From Escherichia coli O127:H6 str. E2348/69 (GTDB lineage: Bacteria > Pseudomonadota > Gammaproteobacteria > Enterobacterales > Enterobacteriaceae), in the NCBI RefSeq assembly GCF_000026545.1, contig NC_011601.1: a stretch of DNA of 64,000 nucleotides. One strand, 5' to 3'. The notes under the pieces were generated by a model that had not been told where the DNA came from, ran no database searches, and saw nothing but the letters and a program-made list of their open reading frames with translations. The position numbers and the translations under genes were made by a program. Within the stretch, counting starts at the first letter, position 1, and the number at the start of each line of letters is the position of its first letter. This document shows, one piece after another, positions 2,068 to 9,955 of this stretch.

Positions 2068-2177
2068 TTTGATAATGAAGTTTGGTAGGGGAGAGACAGT
2101 ATAAAGTGTTCGGGTGGACAAAAAAACAACTGTAAAAAGACCTGAAAGCAGAATGAATTAATGCAATGTCAGGTTTT

Positions 2178-2882
2178 TTAATCCATCCGATGTTCCCCCT
2201 TTTCCATGGCGTCGCGATCAAAAAATCGCTGAATTTTTCCCTCGGACATCAATGCCGCTCGATCAGACATATGCGCGATGACATCGGCATCGTGACTGAC
2301 CAGCAGATATGTCATTTGGTGTTCCAGCTTAAGTTGATTCAACAAATTAAGGATTTCCGCTTGTACCGACATATCCAACGCCGAGGTGGGTTCATCCAGC
2401 AGAAGAAGTTGTGGTCGTAACAACAGGGCGCGAGCAATAACCACACGTTGCCGTTGACCACCGGAAAGCTGGTGTGGGTAGCGACGAGCGGCGTCGAAAG
2501 GCAAGCCAACCTGTTCCAGTGCAGTCTGGACGCGTTTTTCTATTTCTCTTTCGCCACGAATTTTGAGTGGTTCAGCCAGCGTTCGCCACAGAGTATGATT
2601 GGGATGCAACGAGGCATAGGGATCCTGAAACACCATTTGCACATTGCGGCGGAGATCGCCCTGAAAACGCATTCCTGGTTTGATGGTGTGCCCAAACAGT
2701 GACACCTGACCGTGCCAGTCGCGCTGTAATCCAGCAATTACGCGCAAAATCGTGGATTTTCCGCAGCCTGATTCGCCAATTAAACTAAATGTCTCTCCGG
2801 CATTAACCGAAAAACTGGCGGCAGAAACTGCGGTTTTCTCAGCAAAAGTCACCTGTAAGTGATTAATTTCAACAATCGTCAT
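2178..2882 (-). CDS. ABC transporter ATP-binding protein (short NikE/DppF-like), last gene of accessory ABC operon
   Basis: Walker A GESGCGKST, signature LSGGQRQR, Walker B LLLLDEPTSALD; ATG start overlaps the upstream ATPase gene by 14 nt. Confidence 0.9.
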   Translation of the reverse strand: MTIVEINHLQVTFAEKTAVSAASFSVNAGETFSLIGESGCGKSTILRVIAGLQRDWHGQVSLFGHTIKPGMRFQGDLRRNVQMVFQDPYASLHPNHTLWRTLAEPLKIRGEREIEKRVQTALEQVGLPFDAARRYPHQLSGGQRQRVVIARALLLRPQLLLLDEPTSALDMSVQAEILNLLNQLKLEHQMTYLLVSHDADVIAHMSDRAALMSEGKIQRFFDRDAMEKGEHRMD

Positions 2883-3705
2883 GGTATTTCTCCGGCGTCA
2901 TTGCCGTCCTGTCCAGCGTCGGCAGCATCTGCCCGTAAGTTTGTGCATTTGGGCGGCAAGTCCACAGTGTGCGCGTGTAAGGATGCGTTGCTGTAGGTAG
3001 CGCAGCAGCGTGCATTTCATCCACCTTATTTCCCTGATACATCACCAGCACCCGATGGCAAAATTGGGCAACTAATGGCAGGTCGTGACTGATCAGCAAC
3101 ATTGCCATCTGACGTTGTTCACACTGGGTAACCAGCAGTTCCAGAATCTGATTACGCAGGCGCACATCCAGTGCTGATGTTGGCTCATCGGCAATCAATA
3201 CCCGGGGATCGTTGATGAGCGCAATTGCAATCATCACTCGCTGCCCCATGCCGCCAGAAAGTTCACGAGGATAGCTTTGCAGTACTCGCGTATTGAGGCC
3301 GACAGCCTGAATTGCGGTGTTTATTTTCTCTTCTTTCTCGCGGCGGTTCAGACGTTGATGGAGCGTAAGCGCCTCTTCCAGTTGCGCTTTTACTGTCTTT
3401 ACTGGATTAAGCGCGTAACGCGGATCTTGCAATACCATCGCGATATCGTTACCGCGCAACTGTTGCCATCCACGCGCGTTAAGGGTGAGTGCATCACGCC
3501 CCAGAATGTTAAGTGTGTCCGCGGTTACTACACCCGGTTTACGCACCAGCCCCATCAGGGCGCGGGCGGTCATGGACTTACCTGAACCCGACTCACCGAC
3601 CAGCGCCAGACGTTCATTGCCTAATGTAAAACTGACATTGTTGACGACCCGGGACTCCGGATAATCGACGCAGAGATTGTTGATACTAAGACGTGAGTCA
3701 GTCAT
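2869..3705 (-). CDS. ABC transporter ATP-binding protein (short NikD/DppD-like)
   Basis: Walker A GESGSGKS, signature LSGGMGQR, Walker B LIADEPTSALD; start taken at the internal ATG (MTDSRLSINNL), since the track's 20-codon upstream extension overlaps the permease gene. Confidence 0.85.
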   Translation of the reverse strand: MTDSRLSINNLCVDYPESRVVNNVSFTLGNERLALVGESGSGKSMTARALMGLVRKPGVVTADTLNILGRDALTLNARGWQQLRGNDIAMVLQDPRYALNPVKTVKAQLEEALTLHQRLNRREKEEKINTAIQAVGLNTRVLQSYPRELSGGMGQRVMIAIALINDPRVLIADEPTSALDVRLRNQILELLVTQCEQRQMAMLLISHDLPLVAQFCHRVLVMYQGNKVDEMHAAALPTATHPYTRTLWTCRPNAQTYGQMLPTLDRTAMTPEKYHDDC

Positions 3706-4531
3706 GTTGAGGCTCCAGAACATCGCGCAAGCCATCACCCAGCAGATTAAAGGCCAGACTGGCAATTAAGATAATTGCGCCGGGAGCGGCGGCAATCCAC
3801 CATTGATCAAAAATGACCTGCATACCGTCGGCGATCATGGCTCCCCATTCCGCCATTGGCGGGCGAGCACCAAGCCCAAGAAAACCCAGGCCAGCAGCCG
3901 CCAGAATGATACCCGCTAAATCCAGCGCCAGACGGACAATGGCAGATGGCAGGCACAATGGCAAAATATGACCAGCCAGCAGACGCCTGCCGCGGATGCC
4001 CATCATTTCTGCGGCGGCAAGATAATCACTGTGTCGCAGACGTTGGATCTCACTCCGTGCCTGACGCGCATAAGCAGGCCAGGTGGTTAATGCCAGCGCC
4101 AGTGCGCCGTTAACCAGCCCCGGCCCCAGCATGGCAACAAAAGCAAAAGCCAGAATTAAACGCGGCATTGACATTACTACGTCAGTAAAACGCATCAGCA
4201 CGCGTTCCAGCCAGCCGCCGTAGTACCCGGCTAAAATGCCAATCAGCAGACCGACCGGGAGTGTAATGATTGTCACCAATGCCACCAGCCCCAGTGCCGG
4301 GCGGCTGCCGTAGATTAAACGTGAAAGTAGGTCTCGCCCGTAACTGTCAGTGCCGAGCCAGTGCTGACGACTCGGTGCTTGTAACCGCGCCGCCGCATCC
4401 TGCCAGTTAGGATCGTGAGGTGCCAGCCACGGCGCGAAGAGCGCAATTAGCATCAATAACAGGATAATTATCAACCCGCAAAACGCGGCGGGTGAATGGC
4501 GTAAACGGCGTAAAAAGAGAAACATCGGCAT
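3698..4531 (-). CDS. ABC transporter permease (DppC/NikC-like)
   Basis: 277 aa hydrophobic multi-helix protein in operon position; ATG start. Confidence 0.88.
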   Translation of the reverse strand: MPMFLFLRRLRHSPAAFCGLIIILLLMLIALFAPWLAPHDPNWQDAAARLQAPSRQHWLGTDSYGRDLLSRLIYGSRPALGLVALVTIITLPVGLLIGILAGYYGGWLERVLMRFTDVVMSMPRLILAFAFVAMLGPGLVNGALALALTTWPAYARQARSEIQRLRHSDYLAAAEMMGIRGRRLLAGHILPLCLPSAIVRLALDLAGIILAAAGLGFLGLGARPPMAEWGAMIADGMQVIFDQWWIAAAPGAIILIASLAFNLLGDGLRDVLEPQHD

Positions 4532-5580
4532 CAGCGTAACCTCGGATCGGTCAGCCGGACCAGCAGGTCGGTTAAGTTATTTATCAACACAAAGCAGACG
4601 CCAATCAGCAGCGTTCCTCCCATGATTGCTGTGGTATCACCCGCGAAGAGCGCTGTAGTGAGGTAGCGCCCAATACCTGGCCATGAAAAGACGGTTTCTG
4701 TCAGTACCGCGCCTTCCAGCATTGATGTATAGGCGAGGGCGATAACGGTGAGTAAGGTGCCGCGAATGTTGGGTAAAACATGACGTAGCAAAATTGTCAT
4801 CTCGCTGGCCCCTTTGGCGCGCGCCAGCAGAATATATTCTTTATTCATTTCGCCAAGACAGACGGAACGAGTCAGGCGCGTAATACTGGCGAGCGAGAAG
4901 TACGCCAGTAATAAAACCGGAAGTATCAAATGGTTGATTGCATTGGTAAATGCCTCGCGATCGCCAGAAAGCCACGTATCAATCAGCGCAAATCCGCTGC
5001 GGGGTTCTATGGTGAATTGATAAATATCATCCAGCCTGCCCGGCCCGGCACTCCATTGCAGTCTGGCGTAGAACAGCGCCAGCATCAGCAGACCAAGCCA
5101 AAAAACAGGGACGGAATTTCCCAGTAGAGTTAATGTTCGCACGGTGAAATCCAGCGGAGAACCGACATAACGGGCGCAAAGTACACCCGCAATGACGCCG
5201 ACAACAGCACCGACAATAAGCGCCAACGTTGCCAGTTCAATGGTCGCCGGGAATGCTGATAGCAAGTCCTGGAGTACCGGTTGCCCGGTGGAGCTGGCGA
5301 TGCCCAGATCGCCGTGTGCCAGATTCATCAGGTAATGCCAGAACTGGACGGCTAACGGTTGATCCAATCCTAACTGGTGGCGTACCTGATCATAGGTGGA
5401 CTGGCTGGCGTGATCGCCAACGATTTGTAGTACGCGATCGACCGGTGAGAGAGCCGAAAGCGCAAAGGTAATCAGCAGCAGGCCGAGTAGCGTCAGAGCA
5501 ACGGTAAACAGCCCTTGCAACAGCGCGAGCAGAGGGCGTTTGCCTCGCCATCTCGCGCGAGTGGAAAAAACGACAGACAT
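4531..5580 (-). CDS. ABC transporter permease (DppB/NikB-like)
   Basis: Hydrophobic permease; start taken at ATG MSVVFSTRAR, as the track extends 31 codons upstream; stop overlaps the next gene's start. Confidence 0.85.
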   Translation of the reverse strand: MSVVFSTRARWRGKRPLLALLQGLFTVALTLLGLLLITFALSALSPVDRVLQIVGDHASQSTYDQVRHQLGLDQPLAVQFWHYLMNLAHGDLGIASSTGQPVLQDLLSAFPATIELATLALIVGAVVGVIAGVLCARYVGSPLDFTVRTLTLLGNSVPVFWLGLLMLALFYARLQWSAGPGRLDDIYQFTIEPRSGFALIDTWLSGDREAFTNAINHLILPVLLLAYFSLASITRLTRSVCLGEMNKEYILLARAKGASEMTILLRHVLPNIRGTLLTVIALAYTSMLEGAVLTETVFSWPGIGRYLTTALFAGDTTAIMGGTLLIGVCFVLINNLTDLLVRLTDPRLR

Positions 5581-5607
5581 GATCTTTCCATACAGTGATA
5601 AATCAGC

Positions 5608-5632
5608 GGCTGGCCTGCAATACAGGCCAGCC
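5608..5632 (-). other. Intercistronic stem-loop between binding-protein gene and first permease gene
   Basis: 10-bp inverted repeat ggctggcctg / caggccagcc with 5-nt loop, read directly. Confidence 0.5.
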
Positions 5633-5679
5633 CTGGTACCGCGCCCGGTAATATGGCTGGACGCGAGTTGCATACAGGG

Positions 5680-7248
5680 TTATTTGGTTACCTGATCAAA
5701 CCAGACCATATCGGCATTCAACCCTTGTTGATACCCCTGCACATTATCACGCATGACAATTTGCGTTTTGCCTTGATCAATAAAGACATACGGGGAACTA
5801 CGTTGTAGTTCTTGTTGCATTTTCTTATACAAATCAAGACGTTTAGCGCTATCAGGTTCAGCGATGGCCGCCAGCGTTTCTTTGTTCAGTTCCGGGATTT
5901 TCCAGCCGTTTAACCCGGCAACGGTGCTGGATTTGCCATCGTTATAGGCGAAAGAGCTGGCGTTGGAATGTGCGTCAAAATAATCAGGCAACCACATACG
6001 AATGGCCCCCTGATGCTGGTGGGCGCGAACGCGAGAGTAGACCTGACTCCCTGCGGCTGGCAGCAAATCAACTTTTACACCGCCCTGAGCAAAGCTGGCC
6101 TGAATTGACTGCGCGATGGTAATAAATGGCGGTTTATTTTCGACATCAAGCGTGAAGTGCGGGTCTTTGATTCCGGCTTTAGCGAGGATCTCTTTTGCTT
6201 TGGCTGGATTAAAGGTAAACGGTGTTTCTTCCAGTGCTCCAGGAAAGCCCACGGGCAGGAAACTTTGATGGGTAAAATATTGTCCTTTTAAGAGATTTTT
6301 GGTGATGCCGTCGTAATCGACCAACCAGCGAGCGGCCTCCCAGAACGCAGGATTACTCATCAGCGGGTTATCCTTGTTACCGGTATTGAAGGCCAGGTAG
6401 TTCTGTTCGGCGGAGGCAATGCTCATCACTTTTACGCCAGGTTTACCCTGTAATGCATCGATTTGATCGGCTCCCAGATCACGAGCCATATCAGCATCAC
6501 CTTGTTGGATCAGCAGGCGACGCGTTGCCGGATCGGGAACATTTTTGATGATGACGTTTTTCAGTTTCGGGGCGCCGGTTGGTGAGCTGGCGTTGGCTTC
6601 CATCACGATGGCCTGATGCGGTTGGTAAGTACGCATTTTAAACGCGCCGCTGCCAGCGGAATGCATCTTCAGCCATTCATTACCAAAGTCGTTATTTTTG
6701 GCGTTTGGCGCAACCAGCTTCTCGTCAACAATTGAGGCGATTGGTGTGGAGAGAATATTCAGTGCCAGCGCCGGGCTGACGTCGGCACTCCATTGCACCT
6801 GGACGGTATGGTCATCGATTTTCTTCAACTGGCTGGCGATATTTTCCGGCTGCCATCCCAGCACATTGAGAATAAACGCACCGGATTTATTCAGTGTGAC
6901 AGCCCGGACATAAGAGTAAATCACATCTTCCGGGCGTACCGGATTACCAGAGGCAAATTTCGCATCGCTTTTCAGTTTTATGGTTAGCGTTTTGGCTGCT
7001 GGGTCAGCCTGCCAACTTTCCGCCAGAATCGGAGTGATTTTCGTCGGATCATTACGGTCCGGTTGTACTACGCGTTGATACAGACTTGGTACAGTCTGAA
7101 TACTTGAGAGTTCATTAGCTTCTGCCGGGTCCAGACTCACAATATCATCCAGTCCCTGGGCTACAACCAACGTATTAGGCGGTGTAGCGGCAACGGTTGT
7201 GGCGGAAATTGTGCTTAAAACCAGTAAAGGTAATAGTTTTTTAATCAT
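5680..7248 (-). CDS. Periplasmic substrate-binding protein, family 5 (OppA/DppA/NikA-like)
   Basis: 522 aa with N-terminal signal peptide MIKKLLPLLVLSTISATTVAA; first gene of a five-gene ABC operon; ATG start. Confidence 0.9.
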   Translation of the reverse strand: MIKKLLPLLVLSTISATTVAATPPNTLVVAQGLDDIVSLDPAEANELSSIQTVPSLYQRVVQPDRNDPTKITPILAESWQADPAAKTLTIKLKSDAKFASGNPVRPEDVIYSYVRAVTLNKSGAFILNVLGWQPENIASQLKKIDDHTVQVQWSADVSPALALNILSTPIASIVDEKLVAPNAKNNDFGNEWLKMHSAGSGAFKMRTYQPHQAIVMEANASSPTGAPKLKNVIIKNVPDPATRRLLIQQGDADMARDLGADQIDALQGKPGVKVMSIASAEQNYLAFNTGNKDNPLMSNPAFWEAARWLVDYDGITKNLLKGQYFTHQSFLPVGFPGALEETPFTFNPAKAKEILAKAGIKDPHFTLDVENKPPFITIAQSIQASFAQGGVKVDLLPAAGSQVYSRVRAHQHQGAIRMWLPDYFDAHSNASSFAYNDGKSSTVAGLNGWKIPELNKETLAAIAEPDSAKRLDLYKKMQQELQRSSPYVFIDQGKTQIVMRDNVQGYQQGLNADMVWFDQVTK

Positions 7249-7422
7249 ATGCTTCCCAATCCCTAAAATTACTTTGAGGTTATTAATATGCTATCAGACG
7301 GGGGTTCGCTGCATTAATCGCGCCAGAATATCCCGTTAATAGAACGAGTTAAACGGTCGATGATTTCTCACCTTACCGAAATTTTGTTTATCAAATGTAA
7401 AGTATTATTACGTTAGGCCGCG

Positions 7423-7450
7423 ATGAGAATTGAGTAAAGATAATTCTCAT
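7423..7450. promoter_or_regulatory. Perfect 9-bp inverted repeat (atgagaatt N10 aattctcat) upstream of the ABC operon, candidate operator
   Basis: Palindrome read directly, about 175 bp upstream of the binding-protein start; no known regulator assigned. Confidence 0.3.
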
Positions 7451-7533
7451 TTGCAATCGTGACAGGAATAGAAGAACAACCGAGAAGACGTCGCTAATAA
7501 CCAGAATGGGCTGGTTTGACTGCGCAGGTATGT

Positions 7534-7570
7534 ATAAAAAAATCCGGAAACAGAGAGTCGTTTCCGGATT
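7534..7570 (-). terminator. Rho-independent terminator of fdhF
   Basis: Stem aatccggaaac / gtttccggatt followed by a T-run on the minus strand, ~50 nt after the fdhF stop. Confidence 0.8.
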
Positions 7571-7622
7571 GATACAAAGGCGTTGGGTAATATCGCCGCT
7601 TTTAACGTGAGTTTACGCGGTA

Positions 7623-9770
7623 TTACGCCAGTGCCGCTTCGCGCAGGCGAGTTTTCAACTTGTTGTACTCGTCAATCACGTACTGCTCGGCGGCGCGCTG
7701 ATCGGCGATCGGCTCGACGCGCACGGCGCAGTATTTGTATTCCGGCGTTTTCGTAATCGGGCTTAAGTTTTCGGTAACCAGCTCGTTACAGGCACCAATC
7801 CACCACTGGTAGGTCATGTAAATCGCCCCTTTGTTCGGACGATCGCTGACCTGCGCACGGGTGATAATTTTGCCTTTACGCGAGTGCACCCAAACCAATG
7901 CCTCATCTTCAATACCCAGACGTTTGGCGTCTTCGGTATTGATTTGTGCGTAGCCAGGTTCATCAGCCAGCGCCGCCAGTGCCGCACAGTTACCGGTCAT
8001 CGAACGGCAAGAGTAGTGACCAACTTCACGCACCGTTGACAGTACCATCGGGTACTCGTCGGTGAGTTTGTCGATTGGCGCGACCCAGTCGCAGGTGAAG
8101 AACTGCGCCAGACCGTTCGGGGTATCAAACTTCTCTTTAAACAGATAAGAAGTCCCCTGATCGGCATCTGAAGTATCCCGGCAAGGCCACTGAATGAAGC
8201 CCAGTTCGCCCATTTTTTCGTAAGTCGCACCGTAGAAATCCGGGCACAGATGACGCAACTCATCCCAGATCTCCTGGGTGTTGTTGTAGTGCATCGGATA
8301 ACCCATACGGGTGGCGATTTCACTGATAATCTGCCAGTCCGTTTTCAGATCCCATTTCGGTTCAACCGCTTTGAAGAAACGCTGGAAGCCACGGTCAGCC
8401 GCAGTAAACACGCCTTCATGCTCGCCCCACGACGTTGACGGTAAAATAACATCCGCCGCCGACGCGGTTTTGGTCATAAAGATGTCCTGAACGATGACCA
8501 GTTCCAGATCTTCAAAGGCTTTACGTACTGCCGACAGCTCCGCGTCAGTTTGCAGCGGATCTTCGCCCATAATGTACGCGGCACGCACTTCGCCATGCGC
8601 TGCGCGGTGCGGCAGCTCGCTGATGCGATAGCCGGTATGAGCAGGCAGGCTTTCCACGCCCCAGGCTTTGGCGAATTTCTCGCGGTTAGCCGGATCTTTC
8701 ACGTACTGGTATCCCGGATACGTATCCGGCAGCGCGCCCATATCGCAGGCACCCTGCACGTTGTTCTGACCACGAACCGGGTTTACACCCGCATGCGGCT
8801 TACCGAGGTTACCAGTCAGCATCGCGAGGCTGGTCAGAGAACGCACGGTTTCCACGCCCTGGTAGAACTGGGTTACACCCATGCCCCACAGGATGGCGGC
8901 GCTTTTCGCCTGGGCATACATCCGCGCCGCCTGACGAATCTCACTGGCGCTGACGCCGGTGATATCTTCAACCGACTCCGGCGTGTAGCCTTCAACGATT
9001 TTACGATACTCTTCAAAGCCTTCTGTACGGGAAGCGACGAAAGCTTTGTCGTACAGGTTTTCTTCAATAATGACATGGCCCATCGCATTCAACAGCGCGA
9101 TGTTCGAGCCGTTTTTCAGTGCAATGTGCATGTCAGCAATGCGCGCGGTTTCAATTTTGCGCGGATCGCAGACGATAATTTTCGCCCCGTTACGTTTAGC
9201 GTTAATTACGTGATTCGCCACGATTGGGTGGGAATCCGCCGGGTTGTACCCGAAAACGAACACTAAATCGGTATTATCAATTTCGTTAATAGCATTGCTC
9301 ATTGCGCCATTACCGACCGATTGGTGCAGACCTGCAACCGATGGGCCGTGTCAGACACGAGCGCAGCAGTCAACGTTATTGGTACCAATAACGGCGCGCG
9401 CAAATTTTTGCATTACATAGTTGGTTTCGTTACCCGTACCACGCGAGGAGCCGGTCGTCTGGATGGCATCCGGACCGTACTTCTCTTTGATGGCGCTCAG
9501 GCGCTCGGCAACGTAATTCAGTGCCTCATCCCAGGAAACAGGTTCGAGTTTGCCGCCACGCTGGCGACGGATCATGGGGGTTTTCAGGCGCGGGGTCAGG
9601 ATCTGGGTATCGTTAATGAAATCCCAGCCATAATAACCCTTCAGACACAGGGTACCCTGGTTGGTTTTCCCCTGCGCTGCCTCCGCCCGGACGATTTTGC
9701 CGTTATCGACGACCAGGTTGATTTTGCAACCTGATGCGCAATAGGGGCAAACCGTGACGACTTTTTTCAT
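7623..9770 (-). CDS. fdhF: Formate dehydrogenase H, selenocysteine-containing molybdoenzyme
   Basis: Track ORFs 9351..9770 and 7623..9302 are in the same frame across a single TGA; 716 codons total; N-terminal Cys cluster CPYCASGCK. Confidence 0.95.
9305..9353 (-). other. In-frame UGA selenocysteine codon (9351..9353) with downstream SECIS region
   Basis: TGA flanked by ...DCCARV and HGPSVAGLHQSVGNG...; bacterial SECIS elements lie immediately 3' of the UGA. Confidence 0.85.
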
Positions 9771-9827: not shown

Positions 9828-9899
9828 TTTTATGCCACATTTTATTTGGGGTCATTCCCTGATATTACGGGCACTATTTATTCAAAACTCTGACGAAAA

Positions 9900-9955
9900 A
9901 CAGGCTGTCGTCAGTTTTGACGTGACGAAACGAAATACCGCGTGACAGCCATCAC
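9900..9955 (-). promoter_or_regulatory. Putative enhancer (FhlA upstream activating sequence) for fdhF
   Basis: Inverted-repeat-rich segment (tgtcgtca / tgacgtgacg / cgtgacagcc) about 80-130 bp upstream of the sigma-54 element; assignment by position only. Confidence 0.4.

Follow-up and report, generated by a model that had tools for sequence, protein, structure and literature searches.

A conserved palindrome at a putative sigma-70-like promoter core upstream of an accessory ABC transporter operon of Escherichia coli

The window, that is the whole stretch of 64,000 nucleotides that was analyzed, contains at positions 7249-7622 a region of 374 bp which forms the spacer between the stop codon of fdhF and the ATG of a gene for a substrate-binding protein. 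Both genes are located on the minus strand; the coding sequence of fdhF ends at 7623 and the ATG of the binding-protein gene occupies 7248-7246. The region matched E. coli E2348/69 with 100% identity. A comparison with K-12 placed the limits of an accessory island of 5.5 kb between yjcO and fdhF at positions 2129-7617 of the window. At this site K-12 possesses only 27 bp, which carry its own fdhF terminator. The 374-bp region consists almost wholly of island DNA and represents the upstream end of the island. In total, 1043 of 5426 complete E. coli genomes carry the island, the carriers seen including E2348/69, ST131 and one strain labelled UPEC, and in E. albertii (L002) it is present at the same place. 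The region is neither a repeated nor a mobile element; it was found at one place per genome, as were the leader insertion and the palindrome described below, and this single copy ruled out a reading as a repeated element.

The island contains the five genes of an ABC transporter operon of B2-type E. coli on the minus strand, encoding one binding protein, two permeases and two ATPases, and zero regulator genes, in agreement with the earlier note on this DNA, which had described an island without a regulator. Judged by its position after gltP (E2348C_4400), the operon corresponds to E2348C_4402-4406. Neither these genes nor the yjcO-fdhF island were mentioned in any paper that we found, the literature search yielded no 5'-end data for the operon, and the EPEC RIL-seq tables contain zero chimeras for the island genes. 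According to the family scores the first gene of the operon (5680-7248, minus strand) encodes a family-5 substrate-binding protein of the Dpp/Opp/Nik type. The operon proteins are members of the Dpp/Opp/Nik family and reached no curated equivalog cutoff; the best family scores of the binding protein were about 110 bits, far under every curated cutoff. With the NikA model the score was 110 bits against a cutoff of 393, and nothing in the analysis pointed to nickel as the substrate. The closest solved structures were DppA-type proteins with about 97 bits. The model of the D,D-dipeptide permease gave the second-best score for one of the two permeases. In Paraburkholderia, distant homologues apparently adjoin, as judged by eye, a D-Ala-D-Ala dipeptidase-like gene.

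At the fdhF side of the region an intrinsic terminator of fdhF is located at 7541-7570 on the minus strand. It consists of a 12-bp stem followed by a T run, and its fold has an energy of -16.4 kcal/mol (z = -4.85). Since K-12 has a different terminator sequence of its own within the 27 bp at this place, the 3' UTR and terminator of fdhF (7541-7622) are supplied by the island in the carrier strains. This stretch includes a second hairpin at 7587-7596 and 7617-7626. The region as a whole does adjoin the fdhF terminator, as had been proposed, but the palindrome itself is separated from it by about 90 bp. The fdhF sigma-54 promoter TGGCATAAAAGATGCA together with its upstream activating region (9830-9950, minus strand), which contains repeated TTTCGTCA / TGACGA units, served as positive control.

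The central feature of the 374-bp region is a perfect 28-bp palindrome, ATGAGAATT-N10-AATTCTCAT, at positions 7423-7450, a candidate protein-binding dyad to which no strand is assigned. Its arms at 7423-7431 and 7442-7450 are complementary at 9 of 9 positions and separated by a spacer of 10 nt; length, spacing and position are exactly as previously described. Dinucleotide shuffling of the region produced a perfect 9-bp inverted repeat with 0-20 nt between the arms in 124 of 3000 cases (4%), and the 64-kb window contains about 20 different repeats of this kind. Without the evidence from conservation the palindrome is therefore weak and marginally unusual; it is lifted above chance because it is conserved.

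A search for additional copies of the dyad revealed none in the 64-kb window with up to three mismatches and no second exact copy in the E. coli genomes, each of which contains one. Viral contigs yielded 0 matches, and the matches to plasmids were exclusively mislabelled chromosomal fragments. A scan of metagenomes with exclusion of the native spacer resulted in 33 matches, which is about the number estimated by chance. These matches share no gene context, and those that were checked are mostly located within reading frames or are parts of longer hairpins. On one metagenome contig (L036, 8043-8090) the arms ATGAGAATT-N10-AATTCTCAT are followed after 3 nt by a strong sigma-54 promoter, TTGGCACGGCTTTTGCT. 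The dyad adjoins a gene with an rtcR-like N-terminus, followed by repeated 'ggtttcaaca' modules, which we guess to be Y-RNA-like. A link to rtcR as a lead to the regulator was rejected, the rtcR-rtcB spacer of K-12 being devoid of the motif. Two other metagenome contigs with a G+C content of 0.63-0.64 (L034, 14550-14577; L046, 7-34) contain the same A+T-rich arms with the similar spacers TTCCGTATAT and TTCCGCATTG, and in L046 a TATAAT sequence is found near the arms. These palindromes may represent a genuine operator in an unrelated organism.

To evaluate the conservation we used an alignment of the 374-bp spacer from five diverse E. coli copies and E. albertii. In this alignment 61 of 374 columns are variable (about 16%), which is equal to the neutral yardstick, a difference of 16.1% at the third codon positions of the adjacent gene. 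The longest invariant run comprises 66 nt (7392-7457, minus strand) and contains the palindrome and the putative promoter core; when the variable sites were distributed at random, such a length was reached 3 times in 20000. At the neutral rate of 16% about 10 changes between E. coli and E. albertii would be expected within this block, and zero were seen. Among 1044 E. coli records, 1033 show the block without any difference from the query, whereas the 66-nt flanks are identical in 5 of 1043 (upstream) and 365 of 1043 (downstream). Of 1044 E. coli records, 1043 contain an unaltered copy of a 30-mer that covers the palindrome, and E. albertii has an identical palindrome. This exceptional conservation makes the operator proposed in the earlier note a plausible candidate, the function as operator itself being putative. 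The invariant block reaches 31 nt past the palindrome, so that the constraint is not specific to the arms, and the two species compared, E. coli and E. albertii, provide no independent test of the dyad symmetry. The invariance includes the promoter spacer and 20 nt upstream of the -35 element, positions that promoter hexamers alone would not fix. To judge from the alignment, the block is under genuine constraint at the level of the DNA. In addition, 7392-7411 and 7434-7453 form a larger inverted repeat that is imperfect, with 15 of 20 positions matching at a distance of 22 nt (6 of 200 shuffles reach it). Its span of 62 nt coincides with the invariant block, and there is a hint of a third degenerate half-site, ACTTTACAT.

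Orthologous operons with 81-87% amino-acid identity are present in 13 species of Enterobacter, Raoultella, Klebsiella, Yokenella, Kosakonia and relatives. When their upstream regions were aligned with Escherichia using MAFFT, there were two aligned places only, the ribosome-binding region and a promoter core. The core, which is homologous across these genera, reads in all 13 loci CTTTAC, 17-18 nt, (G)GCCTAnnnTAGC and resembles a weak sigma-70 promoter of the form TTTAC-N17-TAnnnT. Its spacer is freely variable, and within TAnnnT the T, the A and the final T are invariant and the middle positions vary; GGCCTAACGTA at the -10 position is common to the other genera. Read from the alignment, this pattern of a variable spacer and a fixed TA...T is the signature of a weak sigma-70 promoter with TTTACG or TTTACT as -35 and TAACGT as -10 element. 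In E. coli the putative -35 element TTTACT of this promoter, P1, is located at 7433-7438 (minus strand) and aligns with the invariant ACTTTA(C) of the 13 orthologous loci. The putative -10 element TAACGT follows after 17 nt at 7410-7415 (minus strand), and transcription would start at about 7403. P1 agrees with the consensus at 7 of 12 positions and falls under the threshold of the consensus scan, which reported the core neither in E. coli nor in the other genera. A core too weak for such a scan fits a regulator-dependent promoter. A tandem duplication of the promoter module looked convincing by eye and was rejected, as its alignment score of 15 compares with 14 +/- 2 for shuffles. Directly in front of the Shine-Dalgarno sequence, 15-40 nt from the ATG, the leaders of the orthologous loci (L003-L017) are C/A-rich (AAAACAACAT, ATCACAATAAC), the E. 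coli leader less so; these stretches resemble the GcvB target sites of peptide and amino-acid transporters.

The palindrome straddles the putative -35 element: the hexamer is part of the palindrome spacer and the right arm is part of the promoter spacer. Relative to the predicted start at about 7403 the dyad is centered at about -33.5 and spans about -47 to -20. In the orthologous operons of the 13 other species the palindrome is absent. The loci of Klebsiella, Raoultella, Enterobacter, Yokenella and Kosakonia contain instead a different dyad, TTATKC-N7-GCATAA(GCTTAT), which is located about 85-105 nt upstream of the binding-protein ATG (L003-L014 and L017), about 63 bp upstream of the shared predicted start, and is absent from the Escherichia region. 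By its geometry this dyad would be a LysR-like T-N11-A site, such sites being centered near -65. The two arrangements have in common the operon, the promoter core, a conserved dyad and, in most loci, the lack of an adjoining regulator. They differ in the sequence of the dyad, in its position (-33.5 versus about -63) and in the spacing of the arms.

In most of the orthologous loci examined no linked regulator adjoins the operon, and no neighbor is consistent across the loci. The neighbors comprise bet genes, ent/fes/fepA genes, a GNAT acetyltransferase, an aminotransferase and a chemoreceptor. In Yokenella a response regulator is found downstream of the operon, with a putative kinase read by position; as cognate regulator this two-component pair would be a candidate at most. 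Because neither the island nor most orthologous operons have a regulator in or next to them, control in trans, as suggested in the earlier note, is a reasonable inference, and the factor itself is putative. That note had missed the straddling of the -35 element, the different dyad of the orthologues and the island origin of the fdhF terminator, as well as the sigma-54-like element described in the following.

Between P1 and the ATG, Escherichia contains a specific leader insertion of about 112 nt (7267-7378, minus strand; MAFFT alignment with the 13 other species). It is present in a single copy in the E. coli genomes and shows neither a stable nor a covarying RNA structure. The insertion carries a sigma-54-like -24/-12 element, TGGCGCGATTAATGCA, at 7310-7325 on the minus strand, 62 bp upstream of the ATG, and is poorly conserved outside this element. 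As a candidate promoter P2 the element would direct a start at about 7299 and a leader of 51 nt. TGGCGCGATTAATGCA agrees with 10 of 12 positions of the sigma-54 consensus (TGGCAC-N5-TTGCW) and has the correct GG-N10-GC arrangement, a match attained in 5 of 300 shuffled versions of the region. The positive control, the real fdhF promoter TGGCATAAAAGATGCA, shows a poorer match to the consensus than TGGCGCGATTAATGCA and the same ATGCA as -12 element. In one E. coli genome (L025, NZ_OZ040994.1) an IS1 element is inserted in the leader at about window position 7350. The binding-protein gene is thereby cut off from the block with palindrome and promoter but keeps the sigma-54-like element, and this genome is a natural test strain.

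The region was scanned with 25 consensus strings of regulators and that of the sigma-54 promoter, simple strings and not curated matrices. The sigma-54 element was the only motif that stood out among these 26, and NikR, Fur, Zur, Lrp, NtrC, CRP, FNR, ArgR, NAC, IHF and the other consensus strings remained at the level of chance on the region. The five regulators that the earlier note had named for a motif check, NikR, Fur, Lrp, NtrC and CRP, thus gave nothing above chance with these strings. Two further candidates, an ArcA-like match at 7386-7400 (reached by 15 of 300 shuffles) and, by eye, a PhoP-like repeat, were discarded, as both involve bases at which E. albertii differs; resemblances to an RcsB box and to an OmpR site, seen by eye, were at chance level.

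Several explanations other than an operator over P1 were considered. The operon belongs to the Nik/Dpp/Opp transporter family, and the palindrome could accordingly be read as the operator of a known metal or global regulator such as NikR, Fur, Lrp, NtrC or CRP. Among the regulators NikR comes to mind first. In E. coli its operator at the nikABCDE promoter is GTATGA-N16-TCATAC, and the palindrome shares with it the overall length of 28 bp, the outer bases ATGA...TCAT, half-sites about two helical turns apart and a position at the promoter of a Nik/Dpp/Opp-family importer. It differs in the sequence and register of the half-sites, the ATGA cores being 20 nt apart instead of 16. In register the outer hexamers ATGAGA and TCTCAT match by eye at 3 of 6 positions per half-site, and the best NikR match of the region (9 of 12) lies elsewhere than the palindrome and was reached by 37 of 300 shuffles. 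For the 19-bp Fur box GATAATGATAATCATTATC the best match was 12 of 19 at 7433-7451, equalled in 143 of 300 shuffles. With Lrp, NtrC, CRP, FNR, ArgR, NAC and the others at chance as well, we consider a site for one of these known regulators highly improbable. A function at the level of RNA or peptide, as a transcript hairpin, an attenuator or part of a small open reading frame, appears very improbable, too. The frame in question, MRIIFTQFSSRPNVIILYI on the minus strand, comprises 21 codons with a TTG start (7456-7391) or 19 codons with an ATG start (7450-7391) and coincides almost exactly with the invariant 66-nt block, but no Shine-Dalgarno sequence precedes it and E. albertii has TGG in place of its stop codon TGA, findings on which we rejected a leader peptide. 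There are zero synonymous changes and every third position is fixed, so that the constraint points to the DNA and not to a peptide. The palindrome could fold into a hairpin of -9 to -12 kcal/mol; its stem is A+T-rich and not followed by a U tract, and a reading as a terminator was rejected on these grounds. A riboswitch or structured leader was discarded likewise: the Rfam search of the region gave no match, the fold of the leader was no better than that of shuffles (z = +0.65), and neither compensatory pairs nor other covariation were detected. Moreover, the scan found no promoter upstream of the block that could produce such a transcript.

More weight has to be given to a role of the palindrome as an upstream activator sequence for a sigma-54 enhancer-binding protein which would drive TGGCGCGATTAATGCA from a dyad centered at about -137 relative to the start at 7299, a typical enhancer position. 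The quality of the match and its superiority over the genuine fdhF promoter speak for this role, as does the retention of TGGCGC and ATGCA in E. albertii despite differences at 3 of 5 spacer bases, and on the minus strand the scan found no good sigma-70 promoter. Orientation, the 51-nt leader and a dyad about 110-112 bp upstream of the -24/-12 match resemble fdhF with its upstream activating sequence. A further parallel is ddpXABCDF of K-12, an NtrC-dependent dipeptide ABC operon; the operon described here is also an accessory peptide-type ABC operon, with one permease scoring second-best against the D,D-dipeptide permease model. In contrast to these systems, the dyad resembles neither the NtrC consensus string of the scan nor, by eye, the upstream activating sequence of fdhF, and the scan of the region gave no IHF site. 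The match itself has a p value of about 0.017 and is not significant after correction for 26 motifs, and across the 64-kb window 11 matches with up to two mismatches compare with 15 expected. The element lies in a poorly conserved, Escherichia-specific insertion, it is absent from the orthologous loci of the 13 other species, and activation of sigma-54 transcription would not explain why the ancestral promoter core is retained under the palindrome. Taken together, we regard this role as unlikely. Distinctly unlikely is its more specific form, in which B2 E. coli and E. albertii would have rewired the operon, losing the ancestral dyad and gaining a functional sigma-54 promoter in the 112-nt insertion, driven from the palindrome by an enhancer-binding protein with a recognition sequence not among the known E. 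coli ones. The palindrome may also be incidental. The block would then be conserved as a promoter with unspecific contacts to nucleoid proteins and polymerase and as the start of the transcript, and its symmetry would have no reader. The frequency of such repeats in shuffles and in the window, the extension of the conservation well past the arms, the absence of the motif from the orthologous promoters, and the failure to find other copies apart from 33 metagenome matches without shared context are all in line with this possibility. However, hexamers alone leave unexplained why about 54 non-hexamer positions show zero change at a neutral divergence of 16%, and in the other genera the promoter spacers are free to vary. 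An incidental symmetry is doubtful in our opinion, but quite conceivable.

The palindrome is probably a binding site for a regulator, which is an ordinary kind of feature. As a tentative explanation, held with less than even confidence, we prefer that it forms the core of an operator for a symmetric, trans-encoded repressor over the -35 element of an ancestral, weak sigma-70 promoter. A symmetric DNA-binding protein, dimeric or tetrameric and encoded elsewhere in the genome, would bind to the palindrome. The dyad would overlie the -35 element and the spacer of the weak sigma-70-type promoter TTTACT-17-TAACGT, presumably the ancestral and active promoter of the ABC operon, and a protein bound from about -47 to -20 would exclude RNA polymerase. 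The sign of the regulation is suggested by this geometry: the site would act in repression because a protein at the position of the dyad would exclude the polymerase. The match of P1 to the consensus at 7 of 12 positions only, the occurrence of such a repeat in 4% of the shuffled regions, the failure of every regulator string in the scan to match, the extension of the constraint past the arms, the lack of a second site in the window or, as an exact copy, in the E. coli genomes, and the lack of deep conservation of the palindrome itself speak against an operator. The last point arises because the palindrome is missing from the other genera, where another dyad takes its place.

As an ordinary cis-regulatory element the site touches no long-standing open question. 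The operon is one locus by which a large group of E. coli genomes is set apart from strains of the K-12 type, and the comparison across genera offers a small and clean example of regulatory rewiring, in which the promoter core was kept, the upstream site exchanged and the leader expanded. The conserved 66-bp block with its perfect dyad is a ready bait for the regulator and hence for the conditions under which the transporter is used.
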